The notes beneath the pieces were generated by a model. It had not been told where the DNA came from. It did not search any database and worked only from the letters and a program-made list of their open reading frames with translations. DNA of 64,000 bases from positions 58,201 through 122,200 of the forward strand of contig JANOJL010000003.1 of NCBI GenBank assembly GCA_031418715.1, read 5' to 3'. Both the position numbers and the translations under genes were made by a program. Shown in pieces: positions 31,840 through 54,967 of the stretch; position 1 is the stretch's first letter; every line of letters begins with the position of its first letter. The stretch comes from Variovorax sp. GTDB lineage: Bacteria > Pseudomonadota > Gammaproteobacteria > Burkholderiales > Burkholderiaceae_C.

Positions 31840-32064
31840 GTTGGTCTCTTTATAAAAATAATGACAAAACTAAGCTGGTATTAACCCTGATTTTACTGAT
31901 GCAAAGCTTGTAAAAGCGCGAATCTGTCACGTTTTCAGGCTAAATTCCGCTCGTTGGCCAATTGTCTGCGATTTCTTGGATGAATGTGGATGAGGAAGCA
32001 ACGCGGCGGGTGTGATACCTCACGTGTTGCGCCCTCTACGTAAAACCAAATGGAGATACTTAAT

Positions 32065-34605
32065 ATGACAGGCAATACAGCACTGATCCTTGTGCTTCTT
32101 TGCGGTCTGGCCGCCGTGGTCTACGGCGTTTGGGCGCGAAGCTGGATTCTTTCTCAAGACGCAGGCAATGCCCGCATGCAAGAGATTGCAGCGGCTATCC
32201 AATCTGGTGCAGCTGCCTATCTGGCGCGGCAATACAAAAGCATCACCATCGTGGGCGTTGTGCTAACGATTCTGATTGGCTTGTTCCTTGATGGCATGTC
32301 GGCTTTAGGCTTTGTGGTAGGCGCGGTGCTCTCGGGCGCTTGCGGCTTTATCGGCATGAATGTGTCGGTGCGCGCTAACGTGCGCACAGCACAAGCAGCC
32401 ACCAAAGGCATTGGCCCCGCGCTTGACGTTGCCTTCCGTGGCGGCGCAATCACCGGCATGCTGGTGGTGGGCTTAGGTCTGCTTGGCGTGACCATTTTTT
32501 ATTGGTTCTTGGTCGGTAATGGCGCGATGACGCCGGATAAAAACCTCGCTAAATTGCTCAACCCTCTGATCGGCTTTGCCTTTGGCTCATCGCTGATCTC
32601 CATCTTCGCCCGTCTGGGTGGCGGCATTTTCACCAAGGGCGCTGATGTGGGCGCAGATCTGGTCGGCAAAGTGGAAGCTGGCATCCCAGAAGATGATCCA
32701 CGTAACCCCGCCGTGATTGCCGATAACGTGGGCGACAACGTGGGCGATTGCGCCGGCATGGCCGCTGACTTGTTTGAAACCTATGCAGTGACGCTGATCG
32801 CCACCATGGTGCTGGGCGCTTTACTGCTCACCAGCTCCGGTACAGCTGCTGTGATCTACCCGCTGATGTTGGGCGGCGTGTCGATCATCGCTTCCATCAT
32901 TGGTTGCTTCTTCGTCAAGGCCTCGCCCGGCATGAAGAACGTGATGCCTGCGCTTTACAAAGGCTTGGCAGTGGCTGGCGGCTTGTCGCTGATCGCCTTT
33001 TATTTCGTGACCGTGGCCATCATGCCCGACAACGCGATCAAGGCCAGCGGCACGCAAATGGCGCTGTTTGCTTCTTGCGCAGTTGGCTTGATTTTGACGG
33101 GCGCTTTGGTCTGGGTGACTGAGTACTACACCGGAACGCAGTACGCACCTGTGAAGCACATTGCACAAGCCTCGACCACCGGCCACGGCACCAACATCAT
33201 TGCTGGGTTGGGCGTATCCATGCGCTCGACTGCATGGCCTGTGATTTTTGTGTGTATCGCCATTTGGTGCTCTTATTCGCTCGCTGGACTGTATGGCATT
33301 GCGATTGCTGCTACCTCTATGCTGAGCATGGCCGGTATTGTTGTGGCGCTGGACGCATACGGCCCGATCACCGACAACGCGGGCGGCATTGCCGAGATGG
33401 CCGAGTTGCCAGCCTCTGTGCGCGAAGTGACTGACCCACTGGACGCCGTGGGTAACACCACCAAAGCCGTGACCAAGGGGTATGCGATTGGCTCAGCTGG
33501 TTTGGCTGCGCTGGTGCTGTTTGCTGACTACACCCACAAGCTGGAAGCTTATGGCAAGGTCATCAGCTTTGATTTGAGCAACCCGATGGTCATCATTGGC
33601 CTGTTTATCGGTGGCTTGATTCCTTACCTCTTTGGCGCGATGGCGATGGAGGCCGTGGGCCGCGCTGCGGGCTCTGTGGTGGTTGAAGTGCGTCGCCAGT
33701 TTGCTGACGGCCAAATCATGGCTGGCAAGCGCAAGCCAGATTACAGCGCTGCGGTAGACATGCTCACCACGGCTGCAATCAAAGAAATGATGATCCCTTC
33801 GCTGCTGCCCGTGGTGGTACCAGTCGTGGTGGGCTTGGCTTTGGGCCCTGCTGCGCTGGGCGGCTTGCTCATGGGCACGATTGTGACCGGCCTGTTTGTG
33901 GCGATTTCTATGTGTACCGGTGGCGGCGCTTGGGACAATGCCAAGAAACTCATCGAAGACAGCTTCGTTGACAAAGACGGCGTGGCCCACAAAAAGGGAG
34001 GAGACACCCACAAAGCCGCTGTCACGGGCGACACTGTGGGTGATCCATACAAAGACACTGCTGGCCCAGCCATCAACCCTTTGATCAAGATCATCAACAT
34101 CGTGGCGCTTCTGATCGTGCCATTGATGATGTCGATCCATGGCAAGCCAGCACCTGTGGCGGTTGTGGCTGCGCCTGTTGCAGCGGTTGCGGCGGCCGCG
34201 ACTCCGGCTGCTGTGGCTGCTCCAGTCGTTGCGGCTGCGGCGCCAGTGGCCTCAGCTGCTGCACCTGCTGGTGATGCAGCTAGCGTGAAGGTCGATGGCG
34301 GCGTGGTGAAGTTTTACTTCGCTCCCGGCAAAATGGAACTCGCTCAAGACGGTGCCAAAGCTTTGGCGCAGATCATCGAAGCCGCCAAGAGCGGTAAGAA
34401 GGTCGGTCTCAGCGGCTATGTGGATCCAAGCGGAGATGCTGCGAAAAATGCCGAGTTGGCCAAGCAACGCGCCTTCGCTGTGCGCGATCTGCTGAAAGCC
34501 TCCGGTGTGCCCGAAGGCCAAATCGTCTTGGTTCGCCCCAATGACATCAAAGAAGGCTCGACCTCTGCTGCCGAAGGCCGCCGGGTTGAAGTGTTCATGA
34601 TCTAA
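32065..34605 (+). CDS. hppA: Membrane-bound proton/sodium-translocating pyrophosphatase fused to a C-terminal OmpA-like domain
   Basis: M-PPase motifs [39 protein letters not shown] and [20 protein letters not shown]. The core is followed by an A/P/V-rich linker (34141-34290) and an OmpA_C-like module (34291-34602; [10 protein letters not shown]...[29 protein letters not shown]...GRRVEV). ATG 32065 follows GGAGA. Confidence 0.9.
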
Positions 34606-44363: not shown

Positions 44364-45437
44364 ATGCTAAAACCGCGCTCCACCCTCGCCTCACTCAAGC
44401 TGCGCAGCACCTTTGCCGTGCTGATCACTGCGCTGTGCACAAGCCTCGCGCATGCAGCAAGCCCTGCTGCACCTGCGGGCAACTCAGGCGCGAGTGCGCA
44501 AGACACCATCAACGCACTTTCTAAAGCGCAGATGGCTGTGGTGGGTGTGCAAGTCACCGCCGCAGAAGGCGCTCGTTCAGCAGAAACGCTTGGCAAGCAA
44601 CGCTCTGGCTCGGGTGTGGTGATTGGCGCAGATGGTTTGGTGGTCACCATTGGTTATTTGATTCTGGAAGCCGACAACATCCAAATCACGACCACGGACA
44701 AGAAAACAGTACCCGCTCGCGTGGTGGCCTACGATTTGGCCACTGGCTTTGGTCTGATTCGCCCTGTGGTGCCCTTGCGCGGCATCGCCCCAGTCTCATT
44801 GGGCGGCAGTACCGATATCAAAACAGGCGAAGCCTTGATGGCCAGCACTGGCGCGTCACCTGACGACGATGCTGATGTCAACATGACCCAACTCGTCAGC
44901 AAACGCGCCTTTTCCGGCTACTGGGAATATCACATCGAGAGCGCCCTCTTCACCAGCCCGCCGATGCAAAACCACTCCGGCGCACCGCTGTTCAACCAAA
45001 AAGGCGAGCTTCTGGGCATTGGCAGCCTGTTTGTGATGGATGCGATGGGTCAAAATGTGCGCTTGCCTGGCAACATGTTTGTTCCGGTTGATCTGCTCAA
45101 GCCGATCATGGCTGAAATGCTGCAAAACGGCAGCAGCAAACTCTCCAAGCGCCCTTGGATTGGCTTGACCTCTAGCGAGCAAGGTGGCCGCGTACAAATC
45201 ATGCGCGTCAACAAAGATGGCCCAGCGCAGGCAGCAGGTTTGCAGCCCGGAGACGTGGTGCTCGCGGTTGACGATGCGAAGGTCGCCAACCTAGAAACTT
45301 TTTATAAAAAAATCTGGGATCGAGCCACCCCCGAAGCTGAAATCAAGCTCACCGTGTTGCAAGGCGCAGATTTGAAAACCATTCTGCTCAAACCCGTGGA
45401 TCGCATGAGCACGATGATGAAGCCTGCGGGGATTTGA
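44364..45437 (+). CDS. S1C (HtrA-like) trypsin-fold protein with one PDZ domain; canonical His motif not evident
   Basis: Signal peptide, then GSGVVIGADGLVVTIGYLI where HtrA has TNxHV. The Asp box YDLATGFGLI and Ser box NHSGAPL are present. A PDZ domain follows (GLQPGDVVLAVDD). Confidence 0.7.
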   Translation: MLKPRSTLASLKLRSTFAVLITALCTSLAHAASPAAPAGNSGASAQDTINALSKAQMAVVGVQVTAAEGARSAETLGKQRSGSGVVIGADGLVVTIGYLILEADNIQITTTDKKTVPARVVAYDLATGFGLIRPVVPLRGIAPVSLGGSTDIKTGEALMASTGASPDDDADVNMTQLVSKRAFSGYWEYHIESALFTSPPMQNHSGAPLFNQKGELLGIGSLFVMDAMGQNVRLPGNMFVPVDLLKPIMAEMLQNGSSKLSKRPWIGLTSSEQGGRVQIMRVNKDGPAQAAGLQPGDVVLAVDDAKVANLETFYKKIWDRATPEAEIKLTVLQGADLKTILLKPVDRMSTMMKPAGI

Positions 45438-45730
45438 ATTTACTAGCCTGAACGGCATGGACACGCACGCACTACAAGCCGCTCGGTAAAAACTTAGCAT
45501 TTGGCGAGATCGACATTTGCGGCGCAGATGGCAAAAGCGTGTGTCGGGCGACGACGACTTACGCGTTGCTTTAAATCCCTGAGAAGCTTTCGGGCTGAGC
45601 CTTCGAAGCCTCTTTCTCATGGCCTGCCCCCCTCACGCCGCCCGCGCGCCAAATCGGCAAGCTGAGGCCTAGGCTCGTGCCTATGACTGCGCAGGCTGTG
45701 AACAGCGCAGCAACCTCCAATGCGATCCCA

Positions 45731-45795
45731 ATTTTTAAGCCAAATCGACTTATTCCCGTTATAGAATATGCGCTGATAGCTATACTATTGATAGT
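45731..45795 (-). repeat. Family-A repeat, copy 12
   Basis: Reverse complement: ctatcaatagtatagctatcagcgcatattctataacgggaataagtcgatttggcttaaaaat. Confidence 0.85.
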
Positions 45796-46186
45796 AAAAG
45801 ACGGCGAAGTGGTCAAGCGAAGTTGCGTGTGTACAGCAGCTCTGATGTGACATGGCGGAGAGAATGTCACGCGATGACAGGCTAGCCGTCCACACGACAG
45901 GTTACAGGTAGTTAGGCTTCAGTCTTTTCATTGAGTTTTGCCACCAGTAATTCTTAAGTATTCAAAAACACCCTTCGTGCTTGAATGGTCTCTCAAATTA
46001 TTGGAAAAGAACACGAAAAGGGGATTCCCTCTTGCCTCCAATTCGTTTCTAATGACGTTAATGAGTGTGCAGGTGCATTGAGTGTTATTTTTTGCACTAT
46101 CGCAAGATGCCAAGCTGCCCAGCTTTTATTTAAGTTTCAAGCCGTCGAGGAGTGTTATGCGTTATCACATCGAAGTTTCAAAAAAA

Positions 46187-47521
46187 ATGAAGCCCCAGCC
46201 CCATCTGCTGGCGATTGCAACGGCCATGGTCGTTGCGGGTCTATTCAGCGCCCCGGCACAGGCTGTGGTCGATGCACCCGTGCGCGAAGCCATGGAAGCG
46301 GTGAACGCCAAACAAGCGCAGAAAGCGTTTGATCTGCTTTCGCCGTTGGAAGGTACGCGCGCAGGCGATCCTGATTTCGACAGCGCCTTAGGCATTGCTG
46401 CCAATGACGTCGGTCAGTTCGCTCGAGCCATCTTCGCGCTAGAGCGCGTTCTTGCGGTACAGCCCAACAACAACCGAGCGCGTGCAGAGCTTGCAAGAGC
46501 CATGTTTGCCGTGGGCGATACCGCCAATGCTCGCAAGTTGTTGCAAGAAACCAAAGAGCAAGGTGTGCCAGACAGCGTTGGCCGCACCATTGATGAGTTT
46601 TTGCAGGCGATTGACAAGGTAGACGAAGCGGGTCGCTCTTCAATGAAGTTGCATCTGGAAGCTGGCATCGGGTATGACTCGAATGTGAACAGTGGTCCAT
46701 CGAGCAACAGTTTTGCCGTTCCTTTGTTTGGCGGTGCGGTATTTACGCTTTTGCCTGCTGCACAAAAAACCGATGCATCCTATCTGCACTTAGGCGCAGG
46801 TGTTTCTGGCCGAGCCAACTTAGCCCCACGCTGGTCTTTCATTGGTAATGCGAGCGCCAGCATCCGCAAGCATGGCAACAGCGCCAGCGCCTTCAACATC
46901 GATCAGATCGACGGCAGCGTAGGCGCGAGTTATCGCGAAGAGCGCAACGAGTTCTCTGGCGTGTTCAACCTTGGCCAAACCGCGATCGGTGGCAGCACAC
47001 TGCGCCAAATCACGGGTCTGACTGGCGAATGGACGCATCGCCCAGACGGCACACGGCAATGGGGCACCTATTTACAACTGTCCAACCTCGACTACCCATC
47101 ACAACCCATTCGAGATGCGCGCCGCACAGTGCTCGGCACCAGTTATGCTCAGCAGCTCAAGAGCGGCATGATTTATTATGTGGGCGGCTATGTCGGGCAA
47201 GAAAGCGAGAAAAGTGCATTGGCGCCACACCTCGGGCACAAGCTTTCAGGACTGCGTGCGGGTTTCCAGATGCCCATCCATCCACAATGGAGCATCTATA
47301 CGTCTGCTGCAATTGAAAGTCGCAACTACGGTGGCCTCGAACCACTTTTTCTGATCACTCGGCGTGACATTCAATTCGATCTGAGCATAGGCGCCTCTTG
47401 GAAAATGAGCGAGAACTGGAATATCAAACCCCAGATCAATTTCAATCGCAGCGACTCCAACATCCCCACCAACGACAGCAGCAAATCCAGCGTGAGCGTC
47501 ATTGCTCGCCGTGAGTTTTAA
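46187..47521 (+). CDS. Slam-like outer-membrane protein (periplasmic TPR region + DUF560-type beta-barrel)
   Basis: Signal peptide MKPQPHLLAIATAMVVAGLFSAPAQA. A TPR-like helical region spans ~30-170. Alternating beta-strand segments follow, starting LHLEAGIGYDSNVNSGP and ending in an aromatic terminus (...ARREF). The size and architecture match surface lipoprotein assembly modifier proteins. Confidence 0.65.
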   Translation: MKPQPHLLAIATAMVVAGLFSAPAQAVVDAPVREAMEAVNAKQAQKAFDLLSPLEGTRAGDPDFDSALGIAANDVGQFARAIFALERVLAVQPNNNRARAELARAMFAVGDTANARKLLQETKEQGVPDSVGRTIDEFLQAIDKVDEAGRSSMKLHLEAGIGYDSNVNSGPSSNSFAVPLFGGAVFTLLPAAQKTDASYLHLGAGVSGRANLAPRWSFIGNASASIRKHGNSASAFNIDQIDGSVGASYREERNEFSGVFNLGQTAIGGSTLRQITGLTGEWTHRPDGTRQWGTYLQLSNLDYPSQPIRDARRTVLGTSYAQQLKSGMIYYVGGYVGQESEKSALAPHLGHKLSGLRAGFQMPIHPQWSIYTSAAIESRNYGGLEPLFLITRRDIQFDLSIGASWKMSENWNIKPQINFNRSDSNIPTNDSSKSSVSVIARREF

Positions 47522-47543
47522 ATTCAGTCCAGGAGAACATATC

Positions 47544-49811
47544 ATGCGCCGCACTCCCAGTCTTCAGACCACCGCCCTCATTGCCGCTTTGGCGAGTATT
47601 TATCCGTTGCAAGTGTTTGCCAATGCTGGCGTGACGCAATTTAGCATTGGAGATGTGAGCGTCCAGCGCTCCGCTGCAAGCACTCCCTTGGCAAACGGCA
47701 GCCGCATCGACAGTGGTGATCTGATCACCACCGGCAGTTCTGGTCGCACCCAATTGCGCTTCACAGACGGCGGCATGGTCTCGCTGCAGCCCAACTCGCA
47801 ATTCAAAATCACCAGCTACAGCGATGCGAGTGCGGGTAAGCAAGACAGCTTCTTGGTAGATCTCGCTCGCGGAGGTATGCGCGCCCTCACCGGCCTGATC
47901 GGCAAACGCAATCGCGATAACTACAAAGTCACCACCACCACCGCCACTATCGGCATCCGTGGCTCAGGCTTTTCTATGGCCTACAACCCCGATGGCACTC
48001 TAGGCGTGACCACCGAGCAAGATGCCATTGAAGTTTGCACGCAAGCGGGCTGTATCGGCCTTAACTTAGGTGAATCTGCCCTCGTCACTTCCGCCAACGC
48101 CCTACCCACCCGCACCAACCAACGTGCGCACTGGAATCCACCCAACCCACGCCGCCTCATCACGGCACGCAACGATGACACCGATAACGAAGGTAGAAAC
48201 AAATACATCGTCAATACAGGTTTGGCCTTCACTGGCGCTGGTATCGGCGAGTCCGGAGGCGATCCTCGTGTATTTTTAAACGGCGCGGCTGTACGAGACG
48301 CCAATGGCAACATCGTCGGCTATTTAGGCCGCAACAATGACCGCGCACAAGGTGGTACGGCAACTGAATTTGAAAACGGAACAACCGGAACTCAAGCTGG
48401 AGGCGACTTGATGATTCTCGGCTCTTGGGAAAACGTCAGCTGGGGCGGTACCAGCCCTGGCACGCTATCGCAATCGGGTTTTGTGCTTGGGCAACCGACC
48501 CCCGAGTCAGCATTTTCTACTGCTGTAGATCGCAGAGCTCGGTATGACCTAACCATCGGCACGCCCGTTTATTCCTCAAATGGAGTCTCAGGAATGCTGC
48601 TGAGTTCAAGCAACGTGATTGTCGATTTCAGAAGTGCCTTTGGTGCGATGGACATCAATTTGGATGTCAGGATGCCCTCTGGCTTTGAAATACTCGACGG
48701 TCAATCTTTGCCTCCCCCCTTAGCCCAAGATTACAACCTGCGCGGCTCTGCTACAGCTACCAGCGCAGGCTTTTCCAGTGTATTAGGCGTCACGGCAGTG
48801 GGTAGAGGATATGAAAACCCGATTGTAGAAATTGCAGGGCCCGCGAACACCGCAGGGACAGGCTCTGTTACGGGCTTCTTCGGCGGCCCACAAGCAGGCA
48901 CAATTGGCTTGAGTTACAACGCGACTATTGGCAGCAATGGATACAACAGCTCAATCGCGGGCGCAGGTATATTCACACGAGGCAGTGGATCGAGCACTAT
49001 TGCCCAAGAGACTGTCGCGTTGCCAGCTTCCGGCCCTTTCTCTAGTCAATTGCACGCCTTGGATGGCTCGGACTTCTTCTCTGTGGATGCCGGTGAAGGC
49101 AACAGTGTTTTCTTTCCTAGCTCTTCATGCTGCTCATCTAGCTCGACAGGCAGCGTAGTTTTCTCAGGAACTCAGCTGCGCAGCTGGGAGAGCGGATCGA
49201 TTGGTTTTAACGAGGGAAATATAAGTGCTTCCCCCGCTCCTTCAGGCGCTTCTGTCCTACAGTATGGCGCTTTTGGCCAGCCGACTGATAGCCATTTTTT
49301 AGGTTGGGGAGCTTGGCAAACAGGCGTTACAGAGAAATTGAATGTCAACAGCGGATATTCTCAAAATCTAACGGCTGTGCATTATGTGATTGGTAAGCCT
49401 AGTTACAACAGTGATGGTTGGACAGGTTCAGCCACCTACAGTTTCATCGGAGGCACGAATCCCACGGCGACCAACTCCAGTGGCACGGCTGTTGGCAATA
49501 TCTCTTCCGCAAGCAATCTGGCAATTAACTTTGGTTCCAGTCCAACAGTCACAGCTAATATATTTCTGTCCTTCAATGGCACACCTGTAACGATCAATCA
49601 AACAGGTACTTTGGGTGGCAACTCTGGCTCCTCTGGAAACATTTATTCAACTGGCAATTCAGCCGACGGCCAGTTTTCTGGCATTCTGTCTGGCAGCCAA
49701 GCAGAACGAGCCGGCATTGTTTACGGCATCAACCACAGCACATTAGGAGCGGTTCGAGGAGCGGCAGCGTTTCAAACAGCCACACCTCCATCAAGAAATA
49801 ATTTGAATTAA
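47544..49811 (+). CDS. Secreted FecR-domain protein with two TbpB-like (handle/8-strand barrel) modules; S/T/G-rich
   Basis: AGGAGA lies upstream of the ATG. The SPase I-type signal peptide (...PLQVFA-NAG) has no lipobox. A FecR-like domain is present (GDVSVQR...GDLITTGSSGRTQLRFTDGGMVSLQPNSQF...ATIGIRGSGF). Two segments end in the TbpB/fHbp-type barrel pattern: GSVTGFFGGPQAGTIGLSY...IAGAGIFTR and GQFSGILSGSQAERAGIVYGI...VRGAAAFQ. Confidence 0.6.
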   Translation: MRRTPSLQTTALIAALASIYPLQVFANAGVTQFSIGDVSVQRSAASTPLANGSRIDSGDLITTGSSGRTQLRFTDGGMVSLQPNSQFKITSYSDASAGKQDSFLVDLARGGMRALTGLIGKRNRDNYKVTTTTATIGIRGSGFSMAYNPDGTLGVTTEQDAIEVCTQAGCIGLNLGESALVTSANALPTRTNQRAHWNPPNPRRLITARNDDTDNEGRNKYIVNTGLAFTGAGIGESGGDPRVFLNGAAVRDANGNIVGYLGRNNDRAQGGTATEFENGTTGTQAGGDLMILGSWENVSWGGTSPGTLSQSGFVLGQPTPESAFSTAVDRRARYDLTIGTPVYSSNGVSGMLLSSSNVIVDFRSAFGAMDINLDVRMPSGFEILDGQSLPPPLAQDYNLRGSATATSAGFSSVLGVTAVGRGYENPIVEIAGPANTAGTGSVTGFFGGPQAGTIGLSYNATIGSNGYNSSIAGAGIFTRGSGSSTIAQETVALPASGPFSSQLHALDGSDFFSVDAGEGNSVFFPSSSCCSSSSTGSVVFSGTQLRSWESGSIGFNEGNISASPAPSGASVLQYGAFGQPTDSHFLGWGAWQTGVTEKLNVNSGYSQNLTAVHYVIGKPSYNSDGWTGSATYSFIGGTNPTATNSSGTAVGNISSASNLAINFGSSPTVTANIFLSFNGTPVTINQTGTLGGNSGSSGNIYSTGNSADGQFSGILSGSQAERAGIVYGINHSTLGAVRGAAAFQTATPPSRNNLN

Positions 49812-49854
49812 TAAATTCATTCAGGGCGACTTCAGATGACGTGATGCAGGCATC

Positions 49855-51963
49855 TTGTTTTCTTTAGAACAGCAATTCACACAAGCCAAGGATTTCCAGC
49901 AAGCAGGTCATTTTGCTGAGGCCTTGGCTTTATTTGGCATACTCGCCAAAAATAACCCCCACCACGCTAGATTTCAGTTCGAACAAGGCAACTTATTGAA
50001 TGCTTTGGCTCATTCTGAGCAGGCCTTAGATTGCTATACCAAGGCTCTTGCCTTGGATGAGAATTTTCCCGGCCTCAAAAACAATCTGGGCAACACTTGG
50101 CTAGATCTAGGTCAGCCTGCCAAAGCATTGCAATGTTTTGATGAAATTTTGGCGAAGCAACCGCAAGATGCCAATGCCTTGAATAACCGAGGCACGGCAC
50201 TTCGCGACCTCAAGCAACCAGAATTGGCATTGGTCAGTTATGAAAAAGCTCTAGCCATTGCGCCGAACAACGTCGAAGCGTTGAACAATCACGGAAATCA
50301 GTTGCTAGAACTCAATCAGCCGGAGCAAGCACTCAAGAGCTATCAGCGCGCTTACCGACTATCACCTCATTTTCACATCACCCATCGTAATGCTGCGAGA
50401 GCATTGCTAGCGATTCATCGCCCCAATGAGGCCATGAAGTTGTTGGACCTTGCTCTTCAAACACTGTCTCAAGATGCGTTCACTTGGATGTATCGTGGGG
50501 ATGCATTGCGCCAAATGCAGCGCTTTGAGGAAGCCATTGCTTCCTATGAGCGTGCGCTGAGCATCCAACCTGCACTTGACTTCCTCCCGGGTCTGAAGCT
50601 TTATCTAAAAATGCAGATTTGCGATTGGAACGATTGGCCTCAGGCCATCGAAGATCTTAAAACTGCGCTCAAAGAAGGTAGGCGCTACACAGTGCCCATG
50701 CCCATGCTTGGTTTCTTGGACATTCCTGCTCTGCAACTGGCGGCTTCACATATTTATATGTCTGGCCATACCGCCCCAGTAAGCATGAAGAAAGAATCGG
50801 CGGTCTCTCCGCATTTAAGCAGCGTTAAACAGGCAACCAAGAAAATTAAATTGGGCTACTTTTCTGCTCATTTCCATGAGCACCCAACAGGCAGGCTGAT
50901 GGCTGAAATCTTTGAGCGGCATGATCGAAGTCAATTTGAAGTTTATGCATTCTCATTCGGCGTGCCTGCACGGGATTCAGTCCGTCAGAGACTCATTGCC
51001 GCATTTGATGAGTTCATCGATGTGACAACCCAAAGTGACGAGCAAGTTGTCCGGCTCTCTCAACAGATGGGTATTGACATCGCGATTGATCTTACGGGCT
51101 ACTACGATCAGTCACGACCCGGTTTATTTGCTCGCCGATGCGCACCGATTCAAGTGAGTTATTTGATCACTCCCGGCACTTTGGGCATGTCATATTGGGA
51201 TTACTTGATAGCGGATTCCGTCGTTGTTCCACCAGCGTCTTTCCCTCACTTTTCTGAGCAAATCGTACATCTACCGAGTTGCTACTTCACTTTTGATTCC
51301 AAGCAAACCATCTCCGAACGGATCTTCACACGCAAAGAACTAGGTCTACCCGATGACGGTTTTGTATTTTGCTGTTTCAATAACAGCTACAAAATCACCC
51401 CGCCAGTATTCGATATTTGGATGCGAATTCTACATAGTGCGCCAGATAGTGTGCTTTGGCTGTTTGAGTCGAATCACAGTGTTCCTCACCAGCTCAAACG
51501 AGAGGCCACTCTGAGAGGTATTGATCCAGAGAGACTCATTTTCTCCAAGGTCGCGAAACTCGATGAGCATTTAGCCAGGCAGCAATTGGCTGATTTGTTT
51601 TTAGACACATGGCCATGTAATGCGCACACCACAGCTTGTGATGCTCTATTTTCAGGTCTACCTGTGTTAACCCACCCAGGGCAATCCTTTGCGAGCAGAG
51701 TGGCAGCAAGCATGCTGACCACGCTGAACTTGCCTCAACTCATTGCTGAATCTCCTCAAGCCTATGAGTCAATGGCTCTAGAGTATGCCAATCAACCCAG
51801 TCGACTCGTCGCCATGAGAGAGCAGCTTCTTCAATCTCGCCATCATAGTCCGCTGTTCTCAGGAGCAATCAAGGCGCGCGAGCTAGAGTCTGCCTATATC
51901 GCCATGACAGAGCGACAAAGAAAAGGGCTTGATCCAGCCCATTTCCAAGTAGCGCGTTGCTAA
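49855..51963 (+). CDS. TPR-repeat protein with C-terminal GT41 (O-GlcNAc-transferase/SPINDLY-like) glycosyltransferase domain
   Basis: N-terminal TPRs (repeated ...A...Y.KAL...P....A.NN.G). The C-terminal half has KIKLGYFSAHFHEHPTGRLM, IQVSYLITPGTLGMSYWDYLIAD and FVFCCFNNSYKITPPVFDIWMRIL, typical of bacterial OGT-like enzymes. No signal peptide. TTG start per the track. Confidence 0.75.
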   Translation: MFSLEQQFTQAKDFQQAGHFAEALALFGILAKNNPHHARFQFEQGNLLNALAHSEQALDCYTKALALDENFPGLKNNLGNTWLDLGQPAKALQCFDEILAKQPQDANALNNRGTALRDLKQPELALVSYEKALAIAPNNVEALNNHGNQLLELNQPEQALKSYQRAYRLSPHFHITHRNAARALLAIHRPNEAMKLLDLALQTLSQDAFTWMYRGDALRQMQRFEEAIASYERALSIQPALDFLPGLKLYLKMQICDWNDWPQAIEDLKTALKEGRRYTVPMPMLGFLDIPALQLAASHIYMSGHTAPVSMKKESAVSPHLSSVKQATKKIKLGYFSAHFHEHPTGRLMAEIFERHDRSQFEVYAFSFGVPARDSVRQRLIAAFDEFIDVTTQSDEQVVRLSQQMGIDIAIDLTGYYDQSRPGLFARRCAPIQVSYLITPGTLGMSYWDYLIADSVVVPPASFPHFSEQIVHLPSCYFTFDSKQTISERIFTRKELGLPDDGFVFCCFNNSYKITPPVFDIWMRILHSAPDSVLWLFESNHSVPHQLKREATLRGIDPERLIFSKVAKLDEHLARQQLADLFLDTWPCNAHTTACDALFSGLPVLTHPGQSFASRVAASMLTTLNLPQLIAESPQAYESMALEYANQPSRLVAMREQLLQSRHHSPLFSGAIKARELESAYIAMTERQRKGLDPAHFQVARC

Positions 51964-51983
51964 AACCTTCTACTTGAGTAATA

Positions 51984-52031
51984 AATTCAATAGCAATCTG
52001 CGCAGTCTCTACAGCCACCTTTGTTTGAAGA
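51984..52031 (+). repeat. Family-A repeat, copy 13 (degenerate)
   Basis: aaattcaatagcaatctgcgcagtctctacagccacctttgtttgaagatc, between the GT41 and polA stops. Confidence 0.5.
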
Positions 52032-54800
52032 TCAATGCGCCTGATCCCAATTCGCTCCGACACCCACTTCCGCCAGCAGCGGCACTTTGAGCTGCGCGAC
52101 GCTGGCCATGAGGCGGGGGATTTCCACCTTCAACCAATCCAGCTCTGATTCGGGCACTTCAAAGACCAATTCGTCATGCACCTGCATGATCATCTTGGTT
52201 TTGAGGGCGAGTCTATCGAGCTCGCGCTGCACGGCGTTCATGCTGAGTTTGATGAGATCGGCGGCTGTGCCTTGCATCGGTGCGTTGATCGCGGCGCGCT
52301 CTGCGCCAGCACGGCGTGGGCCATTGGGGCTGTTGATCTCAGGAAGGTAGAGGCGGCGGCCAAGCACGGTTTCGACGTAGCCTTTGGCTTTGGCAGACAG
52401 GCGCGTCTCGTCCATGTATTGCTTCACACCTGCAAAGCGAGCAAAGTAACGCTCGATGTAATTCTTTGCAGCCGTGTTGTCGATGCTGAGCGCTTTGGCC
52501 AAGCCGAAAGCGCTCATGCCGTAGATCAGGCCGAAGTTGATCACCTTGGCATAGCGGCGTTGCTCGCTGCTCACATCGCTGGCGGATAAGCCGAATACTT
52601 CAGCTGCTGTGGCGCGGTGGACGTCAATGCCATCGGTAAACGCCTTGATCAGCGCTTCATCGCCGCTGATGTGCGCCATGATGCGCAGCTCGATTTGAGA
52701 GTAATCTGCGCTGGCGATCAGGCAGCCTGGAGGCGCAACGAAAGCTTCGCGCACGCGGCGGCCTTCCGCTGTTTTGACGGGGATGTTTTGCAGATTGGGG
52801 TCATTGCTCGACAAACGGCCTGTGACTGCCACTGCTTGCGCGTAATGCGTGTGCACGCGGCCTGTGCGCGGATGGGCGAGTTGGCCGAGTTTGTCGGTGT
52901 ACGTACCTTTGAGCTTGGAAATGCCTCGGTGCTCCAAGATTTTTGCGGGCAGCGGGTAATCTTCTGCGAGTTTTTCTAAGACTTCTTCGTCGGTGCTCGG
53001 TGCGCCGGTAGCGGTTTTCTTCACGATGGGCAAGCCCAGTTTGGTGAAGAAAATTTCGCCGATTTGCTTTGGAGAAGCGAGGTTAAAAGGCTGCCCGGCC
53101 AGATCATGCGCCTCAGATTCGAGCTGCATGATGCGCTGCCCTAGTTCGTGGCTCTGCGCGGCAAGCAGCTGCGCATCAATCATCACGCCGTTGCGTTCAA
53201 TGCGATACAGGCTTTCCGAACTTTCGATTTCCAGCTCATAAATCCCGCGCAGCTTCTCATTGGCCTGCAGCTTCGGCCAGAGCGCCAGATGCACATCCAG
53301 CGTTTGATCGGAATCTTCGCAGGAGTATTCAGAAGCTTTCTCAATATCGACCTGCGAGAAAGAAATCTGATGCACCCCTTTGCCGCACAGATCTTCATAG
53401 CTGATGCCACTCCGCCCCACATGCCGCTCTGCAAGGCTGGTTAAGTTATGCGGCCTATGTACTTCCAACACGTAGCTTTGCAGCATCGTGTCATGCACAT
53501 AGCCCTGCACTTCAACACCGTGGTTGGCAAACACATGACGGTCGTATTTCACATGCTGGCCAAGTTTTGGGTGTTTTGCATCTTCCAGCCAAGGCTTGAG
53601 TTTGGCGAGCACCTCGTTGATGGGCAGCTGATCTGGCGCATCGGCGTAGGTGTGGGCGAGCGGAATATAAGCCGCCTCGCCGGGCGTGATACTGAAGCTG
53701 ATGCCTACGATCTGCGCCTGCATTTCGTGCAGCGAAGTGGTTTCGGTATCTAGCGCCGTGAGCTCAGCCGCTTTGATTTTTTCATGCCAAGCATCGAAGG
53801 CTTCCCAAGTGAGGATGGTGTCGTATTTTTTATCACTCACCGCAGATACGACGGGCGCTTCCTCTGCAAACAAATCATCCATCGCTGGGGCGGGAGCGTA
53901 GGCAGCAGATTTCTTGCCCAGGCCTGCCACCAGTCCCTTGAACCCATATTTTAAGTAAAAATCGCCTAATTCCGTTGTATTATCTGCGCCAAGTGCTACT
54001 GAATTCATAGCGGGCAGGCCTTCTACATGCCCCGCGAGATCACAATCCGTTTTGATCTTCAGCAACTCGCGACCCTTTGGCAACCATTCCCGAGCCTTGC
54101 GCAAGTTCTCTCCTGCCACACCTTTGATCTCGTCAGCGTGCGCCATCAGATTCTCCAGCGAGCCGTATTCGTTCAGCCATTTCGCTGCGGTCTTGGGCCC
54201 CACTTTTTCCACACCGGGCACGTTGTCCACCGTATCGCCTACGAGGTTTTGATAGTCCAGCATCAGGCTGGGCGGCACGCCGAATTCAGTGGTCACACCG
54301 GCGATATCGCGCTTCTTGCCATTCATCGTGTCGATGATGGTGATGTGTTCGTTCACCAGTTGCGATAAATCTTTGTCGCCACTGGAGATGATCACCTCCA
54401 TGCCTTGTTCTGCACCGATCCGCGCCATCGTGCCGATCACATCATCCGCCTCCACACCCGGCACAGCCACCACCGGCCAGCCCAGCAACCGCATCACCTC
54501 ATGAATCGGCGCAATCTGGCTGCGCAGATCATCGGGCATGGGCGAGCGGTTGGCTTTGTATTCGGGATACAGCGCATCGCGGAAGGTGGGGCCGCTCGCA
54601 TCAAAAATACACACGGCATACGTTGATGGAAACTGTGTGCGAAGCGCCGCCATCATATTGATCATGCCGCGAATCGCTCCCGTGGCCGCGCTGCTCGGAT
54701 CACCGGCCACAGCGCGCAAATCGGGCATCGCATGGAAAGCGCGGTACAGGTAGCTGGAGCCATCCACGAGCAGGAGGCGGTTTTCGGGAGTTTGTGTCAT
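52032..54800 (-). CDS. polA: DNA polymerase I
   Basis: 5'-nuclease domain (LLLVDGSSYLYRAFHA), 3'-5' exonuclease domain and polymerase motifs (DYSQIELRIMAH; QVHDELVFEV). ATG 54800 chosen. Confidence 0.97.
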   Translation of the reverse strand: MTQTPENRLLLVDGSSYLYRAFHAMPDLRAVAGDPSSAATGAIRGMINMMAALRTQFPSTYAVCIFDASGPTFRDALYPEYKANRSPMPDDLRSQIAPIHEVMRLLGWPVVAVPGVEADDVIGTMARIGAEQGMEVIISSGDKDLSQLVNEHITIIDTMNGKKRDIAGVTTEFGVPPSLMLDYQNLVGDTVDNVPGVEKVGPKTAAKWLNEYGSLENLMAHADEIKGVAGENLRKAREWLPKGRELLKIKTDCDLAGHVEGLPAMNSVALGADNTTELGDFYLKYGFKGLVAGLGKKSAAYAPAPAMDDLFAEEAPVVSAVSDKKYDTILTWEAFDAWHEKIKAAELTALDTETTSLHEMQAQIVGISFSITPGEAAYIPLAHTYADAPDQLPINEVLAKLKPWLEDAKHPKLGQHVKYDRHVFANHGVEVQGYVHDTMLQSYVLEVHRPHNLTSLAERHVGRSGISYEDLCGKGVHQISFSQVDIEKASEYSCEDSDQTLDVHLALWPKLQANEKLRGIYELEIESSESLYRIERNGVMIDAQLLAAQSHELGQRIMQLESEAHDLAGQPFNLASPKQIGEIFFTKLGLPIVKKTATGAPSTDEEVLEKLAEDYPLPAKILEHRGISKLKGTYTDKLGQLAHPRTGRVHTHYAQAVAVTGRLSSNDPNLQNIPVKTAEGRRVREAFVAPPGCLIASADYSQIELRIMAHISGDEALIKAFTDGIDVHRATAAEVFGLSASDVSSEQRRYAKVINFGLIYGMSAFGLAKALSIDNTAAKNYIERYFARFAGVKQYMDETRLSAKAKGYVETVLGRRLYLPEINSPNGPRRAGAERAAINAPMQGTAADLIKLSMNAVQRELDRLALKTKMIMQVHDELVFEVPESELDWLKVEIPRLMASVAQLKVPLLAEVGVGANWDQAH

Positions 54801-54847
54801 GCCAGTATTGTCGGTAAATCTGCAAGTCGGAGGCTGAGTATTTTCTA

Positions 54848-54967
54848 GGTAACGCGAAAAACGCAAAAAAACCGCGAAAATCGCCAAAGCAAATTCATTC
54901 ACGACTCTATCTGAACTCAAAACACTTTTTGCGCTTTTCGCGTTCTTTTCGCGTTTTTCGCGTTACC
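54848..54967. repeat. Family-B A-tract inverted-repeat element (37-nt arms, 46-nt spacer)
   Basis: The left arm is ggtaacgcgaaaaacgcaaaaaaaccgcgaaaatcgc. The reverse complement of the right arm is ggtaacgcgaaaaacgcgaaaagaacgcgaaaagcgc. The arms match at 33 of 37 positions. It fills the polA/thrB divergent region. Confidence 0.85.

Follow-up and report, generated by a model that had tools for sequence, protein, structure and literature searches.

A candidate type 11 secretion module linking a Slam-family protein, a FecR-domain cargo with TbpB-like lobes and an OGT-type glycosyltransferase in Variovorax

Within a 64-kb stretch of DNA from Variovorax sp. (contig JANOJL010000003.1; this stretch is called the window, and coordinates are given in its numbering), three genes on the forward strand encode a putative Slam-family outer-membrane protein (gene 1, 46157..47521), a protein of 755 aa that joins a FecR-like domain to two TbpB-like lobes (gene 2, 47544-49811), and a glycosyltransferase of 702 aa with tetratricopeptide repeats (TPR) and a GT41 catalytic domain (gene 3, 49855-51963). 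Genes 1 and 2 very probably make up a type 11 secretion pair, in which Slam serves a soluble cargo of new architecture. For the locus as a whole, we favor, with moderate confidence, the explanation that it is a type 11 (Slam-family) secretion module whose cargo is O-glycosylated before export. The combination of Slam, FecR/TbpB-lobe cargo and GT41 is conserved in relatives. We found no description of it in the literature searched, which agrees with an earlier note on this DNA, made from its letters, that knew of none.

Gene 1 most likely encodes a protein of the Slam / type 11 secretion family, with a TPR domain followed by a predicted 14-strand barrel. An N-terminal signal peptide, MKPQPHLLAIATAMVVAGLFSAPAQA followed by V, can be read from the sequence. 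The protein contains the motif GYDSNVN and ends in REF, and its homologues end in RDF or REF. SlipAM/DUF560 (PF04575) matches residues 159-444, corresponding to positions 7-288 of the 288 in the model, with 31.1 bits at a Pfam cut-off of 22, and TPR_19 reaches 36.2 bits (cut-off 25). The AlphaFold2 model, based on 36 homologues, has a mean predicted local distance difference test score (pLDDT) of 87.3. It displays the signal helix, TPR-like helices (residues 30-149) and, from residue 152 to residue 443, 14 long β-strands (in 444-aa numbering). Among the best 120 of the 366 relatives retrieved by the homologue search, those named by NCBI bear the title ‘surface lipoprotein assembly modifier’ or ‘DUF560 domain-containing protein’. 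The earlier note had recognized a Slam (DUF560) architecture here, and the domain match above threshold, the TPR domain and the modeled barrel all bear it out. Its open reading frame (ORF) for gene 1 is present as well, but the start that it chose, 46187, is less likely than 46157. The protein is 444 aa long from 46187 and 454 aa long from 46157. We consider the latter start better supported because GAGGAG lies immediately 5' of the ATG at 46157 and the public gene call begins there.

Gene 2 opens with a signal peptide of the signal peptidase I type (47544..47621, residues 1-26), MRRTPSLQTTALIAALASIYPLQVFA followed by NAG, with a predicted cleavage site. The signal ends in LQVFA just before NAG, and the first 40 residues contain no Cys. 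A lipobox was found in 0 of the 47 full-length homologues of gene 2, and its absence places the cargo in the soluble class rather than among the lipoproteins. The signal peptide is followed by a FecR-like β-sandwich domain (47622..48119, residues ~27-192), assigned from PF04773 and from fold matches. PF04773 is the only Pfam domain found in gene 2, covering residues 60-152 with 44.7 bits (cut-off 24). A signal peptide without a lipobox and a FecR domain had both been proposed before, and both are confirmed by these results. Among the NCBIfam models, LipL45 and Lsa33 match the N-terminal domain best. The LipL45 model matches 47 of 47 homologues (best E 1.7e-10), at 36.6 bits under a cut-off of 350.

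Behind the FecR-like domain, a flexible linker (48120..48188, residues ~193-215) leads to two lobes. Residues 195-212 of the linker have pLDDT below 50 and are predicted to be disordered. Lobe 1 (48189..48989, residues ~216-482), identified by fold matches and by hhalign, consists of a handle and a TbpB-like β-barrel. Lobe 2 (48990..49811, residues 483-755) has a handle and a C-terminal TbpB-like β-barrel, closes with GAVRGAAAFQ, and is presumed to be the domain recognized by Slam. The AlphaFold2 model of gene 2, based on 47 homologues, has a mean pLDDT of 82.5 and contains the β-sandwich, the low-confidence linker and two all-β modules. By hhalign, one of these C-terminal modules is a homologue of the other (probability 99.8%, E 9.5e-28).

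Comparing the model with the PDB by Foldseek placed TbpB chains at all of ranks 1-23, with E values from 1.8e-7 to 5e-5 and probabilities of 0.99-1.00. TM-scores are 0.47-0.49 for the TbpB C-lobe 5kkx and 0.53 for the C-domain of NHBA. The next matches are periplasmic domains of FecR-type anti-sigma proteins, 4m0n (a putative anti-sigma factor) and 6ovk (PupR). Further down follow the NHBA C-domain, HphA, fHbp, hemophilin and the LbpB N-lobe. TbpB, NHBA, HphA, fHbp, hemophilin and LbpB are known Slam cargo proteins. Judged by the fold search, the C-terminus of gene 2 is predicted to form an 8-strand barrel of the TbpB type. We conclude that in the gene 2 protein, two TbpB-type lobes, each made of a handle and a barrel, come after a FecR-like domain.

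The relatives of gene 2 carry the sequence trace of this fold. PF01298 (TbpB_B_D) matches weakly in 4 of the 47 homologues (best E 0.0023). NF041636, the model of the ‘Slam-dependent surface lipoprotein’, matches the barrel of one or other lobe in 10 of 47, the best match having E 1.8e-11 and 44.5 bits, below the cut-off of 80. The barrel matched is equivalent to that of lobe 1 in homologue P0090 and to that of lobe 2 in P0024. In a search space of 1.84 billion representative proteins, a lobe profile retrieved 1180 relatives, 554 of them at E <= 1e-10 in the 50%-identity protein library. One of these relatives, P0447, is reached at E 3.8e-24 and itself passes TbpB_B_D with 34.4 bits (cut-off 26).

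Some relatives found with the lobe profile are very long, namely P0384 (1278 aa), P0442 (1515 aa), P0413 (1938 aa) and P0467 (2105 aa), with up to seven lobe matches. An N-terminal FecR domain is present in P0378 and P0384, while Pfam finds no domain in P0442 and P0483. The lobe occurs in many architectures, as a module that can be reused.

Gene 3 appears, from its sequence, to be an OGT-type TPR-GT41 with its active-site motifs apparently intact. GT41 (PF13844) scores 291 bits and at least five TPR families match, with the TPR repeats at residues ~1-300 and the catalytic part at ~316-702. The closest solved relatives are human OGT (E 2e-102), Drosophila OGT, XcOGT (E 1e-73) and SPINDLY. FNNSYK and HTTACD of gene 3 align with FNQLY(K) and HTTSMD of Drosophila OGT 5a01. 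In OGT, the aligned residues (FNxxYK, HTTxxD) belong to the active site. Aligned with Drosophila OGT, gene 3 lacks the intervening domain of the metazoan enzymes. Inspection of the protein sequence revealed no N-terminal signal sequence, so the description of gene 3 as a TPR-GT41 enzyme that lacks a signal peptide stands. On the other hand, N-glycosylation of the HMW1C type was considered and ruled out: the HMW1C/NGT model NF049992 gives 16.5 bits under a cut-off of 1000, the enzyme has TPR repeats, and the cargo shows no enrichment or conservation of sequons. The likeness to HMW1C drawn in the earlier note is therefore valid as a functional analogy and not as a family relationship, gene 3 being OGT-type.

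In the window, the three genes follow each other on one strand with gaps of 22 nt between genes 1 and 2 and 43 nt between genes 2 and 3, exactly as first reported. In order to follow this arrangement across genomes, we use the GTDB species-representative scan, which gave 484 confirmed stretches encoding a relative of the cargo. Locus counts refer to the best 80 of these 484 stretches unless stated otherwise, and glycosyltransferase counts given out of 63 to those loci whose downstream sequence reaches 4 kb or more. Almost all of the 80 loci come from Comamonadaceae or other Burkholderiales, such as Polaromonas, Variovorax, Rhodoferax, Brachymonas and Ramlibacter, including cultured strains. 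Immediately before the cargo gene, and in the same orientation, 74 of the 80 have a Slam gene. The remaining six contigs break off at the cargo gene, so the adjacency holds in 74 of 74 testable loci. Of the 63 loci, 51 have a TPR-GT41 gene downstream of the cargo gene in the same orientation. The co-occurrence of the triad in related genomes, which had been proposed as a check, is thereby found.

The position of GT41 is one-sided, with a match in 57 downstream regions and in 0 upstream flanks. The four closest homologues of gene 3 (60-65% identical, a small clade) each lie directly after a homologue of the cargo gene. Meanwhile, in close relatives whose polA is 82-95% identical, the GT41 at the same position is only 24-28% identical (loci L001-L005, L081 and L083-L085 were examined). 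The GC content of gene 3 drops to 0.46-0.49, against 0.51-0.58 in the flanks. Together with the different GT41 lineages at one position, this drop suggests that GT41 has been repeatedly recruited or replaced at this site. Non-orthologous GT41s at the same site make an accidental adjacency hard to accept.

In 45 of the 51 loci with GT41, a GT4 gene (Glycos_transf_1) on the opposite strand is also located between cargo and GT41. Examples are L040 (10837-11964) and L075 (9580-10572), both on the reverse strand, and 43 further loci have it. No GT4 homologue occurs anywhere in the 64-kb window.

The Slam-cargo pair is also found without glycosyltransferases amid unrelated housekeeping genes, as in L052 and L009. 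The contexts that we checked individually include 2-oxoglutarate dehydrogenase with acetyl-CoA synthetase, Sox/FCSD genes (L081, L085), and polA. Only such contexts are given, and a clustering of flanking ORFs for independent contexts is noisy because spurious long ORFs abound in GC-rich DNA. Counted per complete gene, the cargo most commonly has one lobe; the two-lobe form of the window and a three-lobe form also occur. Two or three cargo genes in tandem are present in 16 of 72 loci.

Two loci in the polA context without GT41 have shortened cargos. In L014 (8001-8558) the cargo is ~233 aa long and consists of the FecR part only, and in L006 (8001-9431) it has one lobe, which suggests decay or turnover of the locus. 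Four metagenome-assembled genomes are labeled Synechococcus (L044), Candidatus Kapabacteria (L053), Asaia bogorensis (L073) and Acidovorax caeni (L080), and their loci resemble those of the remaining records, most of which are Polaromonas. The Slam of three of them is 48-49% identical to gene 1, and L080 starts at the cargo gene. The labels of L044, L053 and L073 look like binning or labeling errors.

In the explanation that we favor, the gene 1 protein would act as the outer-membrane translocon, with its TPR domain in the periplasm and a 14-strand barrel. The gene 2 cargo would be exported by Sec and cleaved by signal peptidase I without being lipidated. It would then be recognized via its TbpB-like barrels and cross the outer membrane through Slam, as hemophilin-type soluble cargo does, and would end up either released or displayed on the surface. 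Before Sec export, the gene 3 enzyme would O-glycosylate Ser/Thr of the cargo precursor in the cytoplasm, in functional analogy to HMW1C acting on HMW1. The GT4 between cargo and GT41 in most relatives might extend the glycan. HMW1C, a GT41 encoded beside HMW1, glycosylates HMW1 in the cytoplasm prior to Sec export (PMC3983070). For our cargo, gene linkage and gene position are the evidence for cytoplasmic O-glycosylation before export, and we judge its chances to be about even.

Several results weigh against this explanation. The Slam-specific TPR model PF24575 stays below threshold on gene 1 (20.2 bits, cut-off 35.2). No Slam structure appears among the results of the PDB fold search with the gene 1 model, so that this search cannot separate a Slam from a porin, and the assignment of gene 1 rests on the Pfam match, the strand count and the gene context. 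Neither PF01298 nor NF041636 (slam_lipo) matches the gene 2 protein itself at E <= 0.1. Direct searches, by phmmer with the protein and by hmmsearch with full-length and lobe profiles, gave no sequence link between gene 2 and the TbpB entries of the PDB. Because these searches are empty, the link to TbpB is visible only by fold and transitively through relatives. The TbpB-like nature of the two modules, as stated in the earlier note, holds on these two grounds and not by a direct PF01298 match. A single bacterial family supplies most of the loci, and upstream neighbors are common to many of them, so some of the gene linkage is inherited synteny. Neither glycosyltransferase is present in 12 of the 63 loci, and GT41 is accessory to the Slam-cargo pair. 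In the 45 loci with GT4, GT41 is not co-transcribed with the cargo, since the opposite-strand gene separates them. The cargo contains 12 N-x-S/T sequons where 11.2 +/- 2.9 are expected, none of them conserved, and its Ser/Thr content is equal in loci with and without GT41. We also considered an acceptor signature that tracks the glycosyltransferases and rejected it, as Ser/Thr-rich tracts are no different and, if anything, are richer where GT41 is absent.

Part of this evidence favors a second explanation, which we regard as possible though doubtful: the Slam-cargo pair is real, and GT41 and GT4 act on other cytoplasmic proteins or glycans, their adjacency reflecting Comamonadaceae synteny. 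It draws on the 12 loci without an adjacent glycosyltransferase, on the separate transcription unit of GT41 behind the opposite-strand GT4, and on the lack of an acceptor signature in the cargo. It also draws on the abundance of TPR-GT41 in environmental Proteobacteria, with 2213 matches at E <= 1e-10. Moreover, bacterial OGT-type GT41 enzymes can have many intracellular targets, as exemplified by HmwC of Yersinia pestis (PMC11329713). It is harder to reconcile with the arrangement of the genes. GT41 matches lie downstream of the cargo and never in the upstream flanks, close relatives have at least two GT41 lineages, only 24-28% identical, at this one position, each of the four closest homologues of gene 3 directly follows a cargo gene, and in the window a same-strand gap of 43 nt separates GT41 from the cargo. 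Very improbable, in our view, is a third explanation, in which gene 1 is a TPR-porin for the export of a glycan or exopolysaccharide (like BcsC, PgaA or PelB), gene 2 is a periplasmic accessory protein or sensor, and the glycosyltransferases make the polymer. The DUF560 network does contain a cluster that is mostly PgaA, and its authors draw parallels with exopolysaccharide secretion (Grossman et al., 2021, PMC8406197). Two glycosyltransferases are linked in most relatives, and the PDB fold search with the gene 1 model gave BcsC as the best match (E 6.6e-12), along with PelBC, porins, CymA and OmpG. The best TM-scores, however, belong to the porins OmpG (0.70) and CymA. Both of these are 14-stranded, whereas the barrels of BcsC and PgaA are 16-stranded, and the predicted count of 14 for gene 1, together with the SlipAM match, speaks against the BcsC-like fold named as an alternative in the earlier note. 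The models of BBP2_2, EpsL, PgaA and BcsC match gene 1 weakly, far under their cut-offs, whereas SlipAM passes. In addition, no synthase, polymerase, flippase or inner-membrane export component is found among the annotated neighbors, the adjoining gene 2 protein has the fold of known Slam cargo, and 12 loci have the Slam-cargo pair but no glycosyltransferase.

We give just as little credence to the idea that gene 2 is a periplasmic FecR-type signaling protein, which senses an envelope signal and merely adjoins an outer-membrane protein. The FecR domain lies above the Pfam threshold, and 4m0n and 6ovk are among its fold matches. The neighborhood tables for type 11 systems list FecR beside sigma-70 families, which suggests regulators rather than cargo (PMC12282271, supplement). 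In gene 2, however, the FecR domain comes directly after a cleavable signal peptide, with no N-terminal anti-sigma domain and no membrane anchor, and ~540 of the 755 residues belong to the TbpB-like lobes. Neither an extracytoplasmic function (ECF) sigma factor nor a TonB-dependent receptor was found among the large ORFs examined around the locus.

The favored secretion module can be extended to a more specific model, which we advance tentatively and consider unlikely. Here the FecR-like domain would be a periplasmic docking or tethering module that replaces the lipid anchor. Folded in the periplasm, perhaps docked on the TPR domain of Slam, it would serve as a plug in the manner of the LapA retention module. 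With the flexible linker threaded through the Slam barrel, the variable TbpB-like lobes would be exposed on the outside of the cell. The OGT-type GT41, joined by GT4 in most relatives, would O-glycosylate the cargo beforehand in the cytoplasm.

The model is hinted at by the pattern of conservation. The FecR-like domain is the most conserved part of the cargo, with a mean identity to homologues of 70%, while the linker (34%) and the lobes (35-37%) diverge faster. In gene 1, the TPR domain has a mean identity of 69% and the barrel of 54%. In published type 11 cargo, the N-terminal effector domain varies and the C-terminal barrel is the common part (PMC12282271). Here, it is the N-terminal FecR-like domain that is conserved and the lobes that vary. 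A further hint comes from the retention_LapA model NF033682 together with the disordered residues 195-212. NF033682 matches residues ~36-94, the N-terminal part of the FecR-like domain, below threshold in 46 of 47 homologues (best E 1.2e-7), with 21.6 bits on gene 2 under a cut-off of 50. In type 1 secreted adhesins, the retention module anchors the protein inside an outer-membrane pore (bioRxiv 10.1101/198937). We treat the resemblance to it as a lead, not as a family assignment.

Type 11 secretion has been verified experimentally for only seven pores, all from one animal-associated cluster, and most members of the family have no known or predicted cargo; the glycosylation of cargo was raised only as a possibility in the 2025 cargo survey (PMC12282271). 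FecR-domain cargo, Comamonadaceae and glycosyltransferases are absent from the main text of the type 11 / Slam surveys PMC8406197, PMC12282271 and PMC5449769. FecR enters the type 11 literature only through a supplementary co-occurrence table, next to sigma-70 domain families (PMC12282271). In the literature searched, no paper pairs ‘FecR’ with ‘surface lipoprotein assembly modifier’, or ‘FecR domain’ with ‘TbpB’. The individual parts are already named separately in public annotation.

The locus defines a large environmental group, with 484 GTDB stretches and 554 lobe relatives (E <= 1e-10, 50%-identity library). Its cargo can be predicted with confidence as a FecR-like domain with one to three TbpB-like lobes and no lipid anchor. 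The locus makes three questions testable, namely the handling of a soluble multi-lobe cargo by Slam, tethering by a FecR/retention-like domain, and the glycosylation of type 11 cargo. If the tether model is true, it would give type 11 secretion a lipid-free mode of tethering. It would also be, as far as we know, the first type 11 system with its own glycosylation partner. The cargo is a candidate physiological substrate for bacterial OGT-type GT41 enzymes; to our knowledge, the physiological targets of these enzymes, including the XcOGT-like ones, are mostly not known. The module is present in culturable strains of Polaromonas and Variovorax (L012, L022-L026, L028, L040 and L075), which makes genetic experiments feasible.

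The surroundings of the operon are largely housekeeping. The gap upstream of gene 1 (45438..46186) measures 749 bp, or 719 bp with the 46157 start, close to the ~750 bp first estimated, and is presumed to contain the promoter region. The convergent polA expected on the downstream side is present on the reverse strand at 52032-54920. The GC content of the leader gap is 0.48. An Rfam search of the 749-bp leader returned no match at E <= 1, a promoter scan detected no promoter-like site in the leader, with a site frequency in the scanned region not above that of shuffles, and the best Fur-box match in the leader was 11/19, the background level of the window. On its reverse strand, the leader contains an ORF of 99 aa (45571-45870) that includes a hydrophobic stretch, so the leader may be partly coding. 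The gene preceding the operon (44364-45437, forward strand) encodes a DegP-like S1C-PDZ protease with one PDZ domain. It was considered as a member of the module and rejected, because it is missing from 80 of 80 related loci. Farther upstream are lepA, lepB, rnc and era, and farther downstream are an ORF for an APH-family kinase (PF01636) and a gamma-glutamyltranspeptidase.

The 64-kb window has just two copies of the 10-mer AATAAATTCA, at 49810-49819 and 51980-51989. They bracket the low-GC gene 3, the first overlapping the stop codon of gene 2 and the second lying 17 nt past the stop of gene 3. The pair could be a scar of insertion or recombination, but chance repeats of 10-15 nt are common there and the relatives have no equivalent, so we did not adopt this reading. 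Elsewhere in the window, an ORF of 851 aa (32050-34605, forward strand) joins an OmpA-family domain (residues 756-828) to the C-terminal side of a complete H+-pyrophosphatase (PF03030, residues 21-689), a fusion that we do not know from elsewhere.

Compared with FecR-type anti-sigma factors, gene 2 has no N-terminal cytoplasmic anti-sigma domain or transmembrane helix, and the neighbors scanned yielded no match to a sigma-70 or TonB-dependent receptor family. FecR domains are not confined to anti-sigma factors, since the Leptospira proteins LipL45 and Lsa33 carry them and are named lipoproteins or surface adhesins. LipL45 is a lipoprotein by family name, whereas gene 2 is non-lipidated. We know of no TbpB-like lobes in LipL45 or Lsa33 and of no Slam partner for them. 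The LapA-type retention module resembles the FecR-like domain in the consistent below-threshold NF033682 matches and in the flexible linker that follows the domain. LapA-type adhesins use type 1 secretion instead of the Sec and Slam route, and the scores here are under the curated cut-off. No genes of a type 1 system were found among the neighbors scanned, and LapG or LapD was not seen in the annotated parts of the window.

Gene 3 resembles XcOGT of Xanthomonas campestris, human OGT and plant SPINDLY in its TPR and GT41 parts and in the FNxxYK and HTTxxD motifs, and both gene 3 and XcOGT are without the intervening domain. It differs from these OGTs in being linked to a secretion module. The HMW1A/B/C system of Haemophilus influenzae likewise sets a cytoplasmic GT41 beside a Sec-exported surface protein and an outer-membrane transporter (PMC3983070). 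Where HMW1C has an AAD domain, gene 3 has the TPR repeats of the OGT type. The transporter in our locus is a Slam, not a TpsB, and the cargo is not enriched in N-x-S/T.

The hemophilin-type cargo proteins, A. baumannii HphA, Haemophilus Hpl and Xenorhabdus HrpC, are like the gene 2 cargo in being Sec-dependent and non-lipidated, with a C-terminal 8-strand barrel, and in being encoded beside a DUF560 gene (PMC12282271). Hemophilins have a single haem-binding lobe of ~250 aa, whereas the 755-aa protein of gene 2 joins two lobes to a FecR-like domain, with no haem or iron context found. The window differs from the Neisseria systems, Slam1 and Slam2 with TbpB, LbpB, fHbp and HpuA, in its host, an environmental member of the Comamonadaceae that is not animal-associated, and in having no TonB-dependent receptor or iron-regulation signal near the locus. 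Unlike the Neisseria cargo, gene 2 has no lipobox and carries an extra N-terminal FecR-like domain, and its similarity to TbpB_B_D in sequence exists only through relatives. What the two share is the basic plan: a SlipAM barrel with an N-terminal TPR domain, a Slam gene that adjoins the cargo gene, and a bilobed cargo with a handle and a TbpB-type β-barrel in each lobe, TbpB being the best structural match of gene 2.

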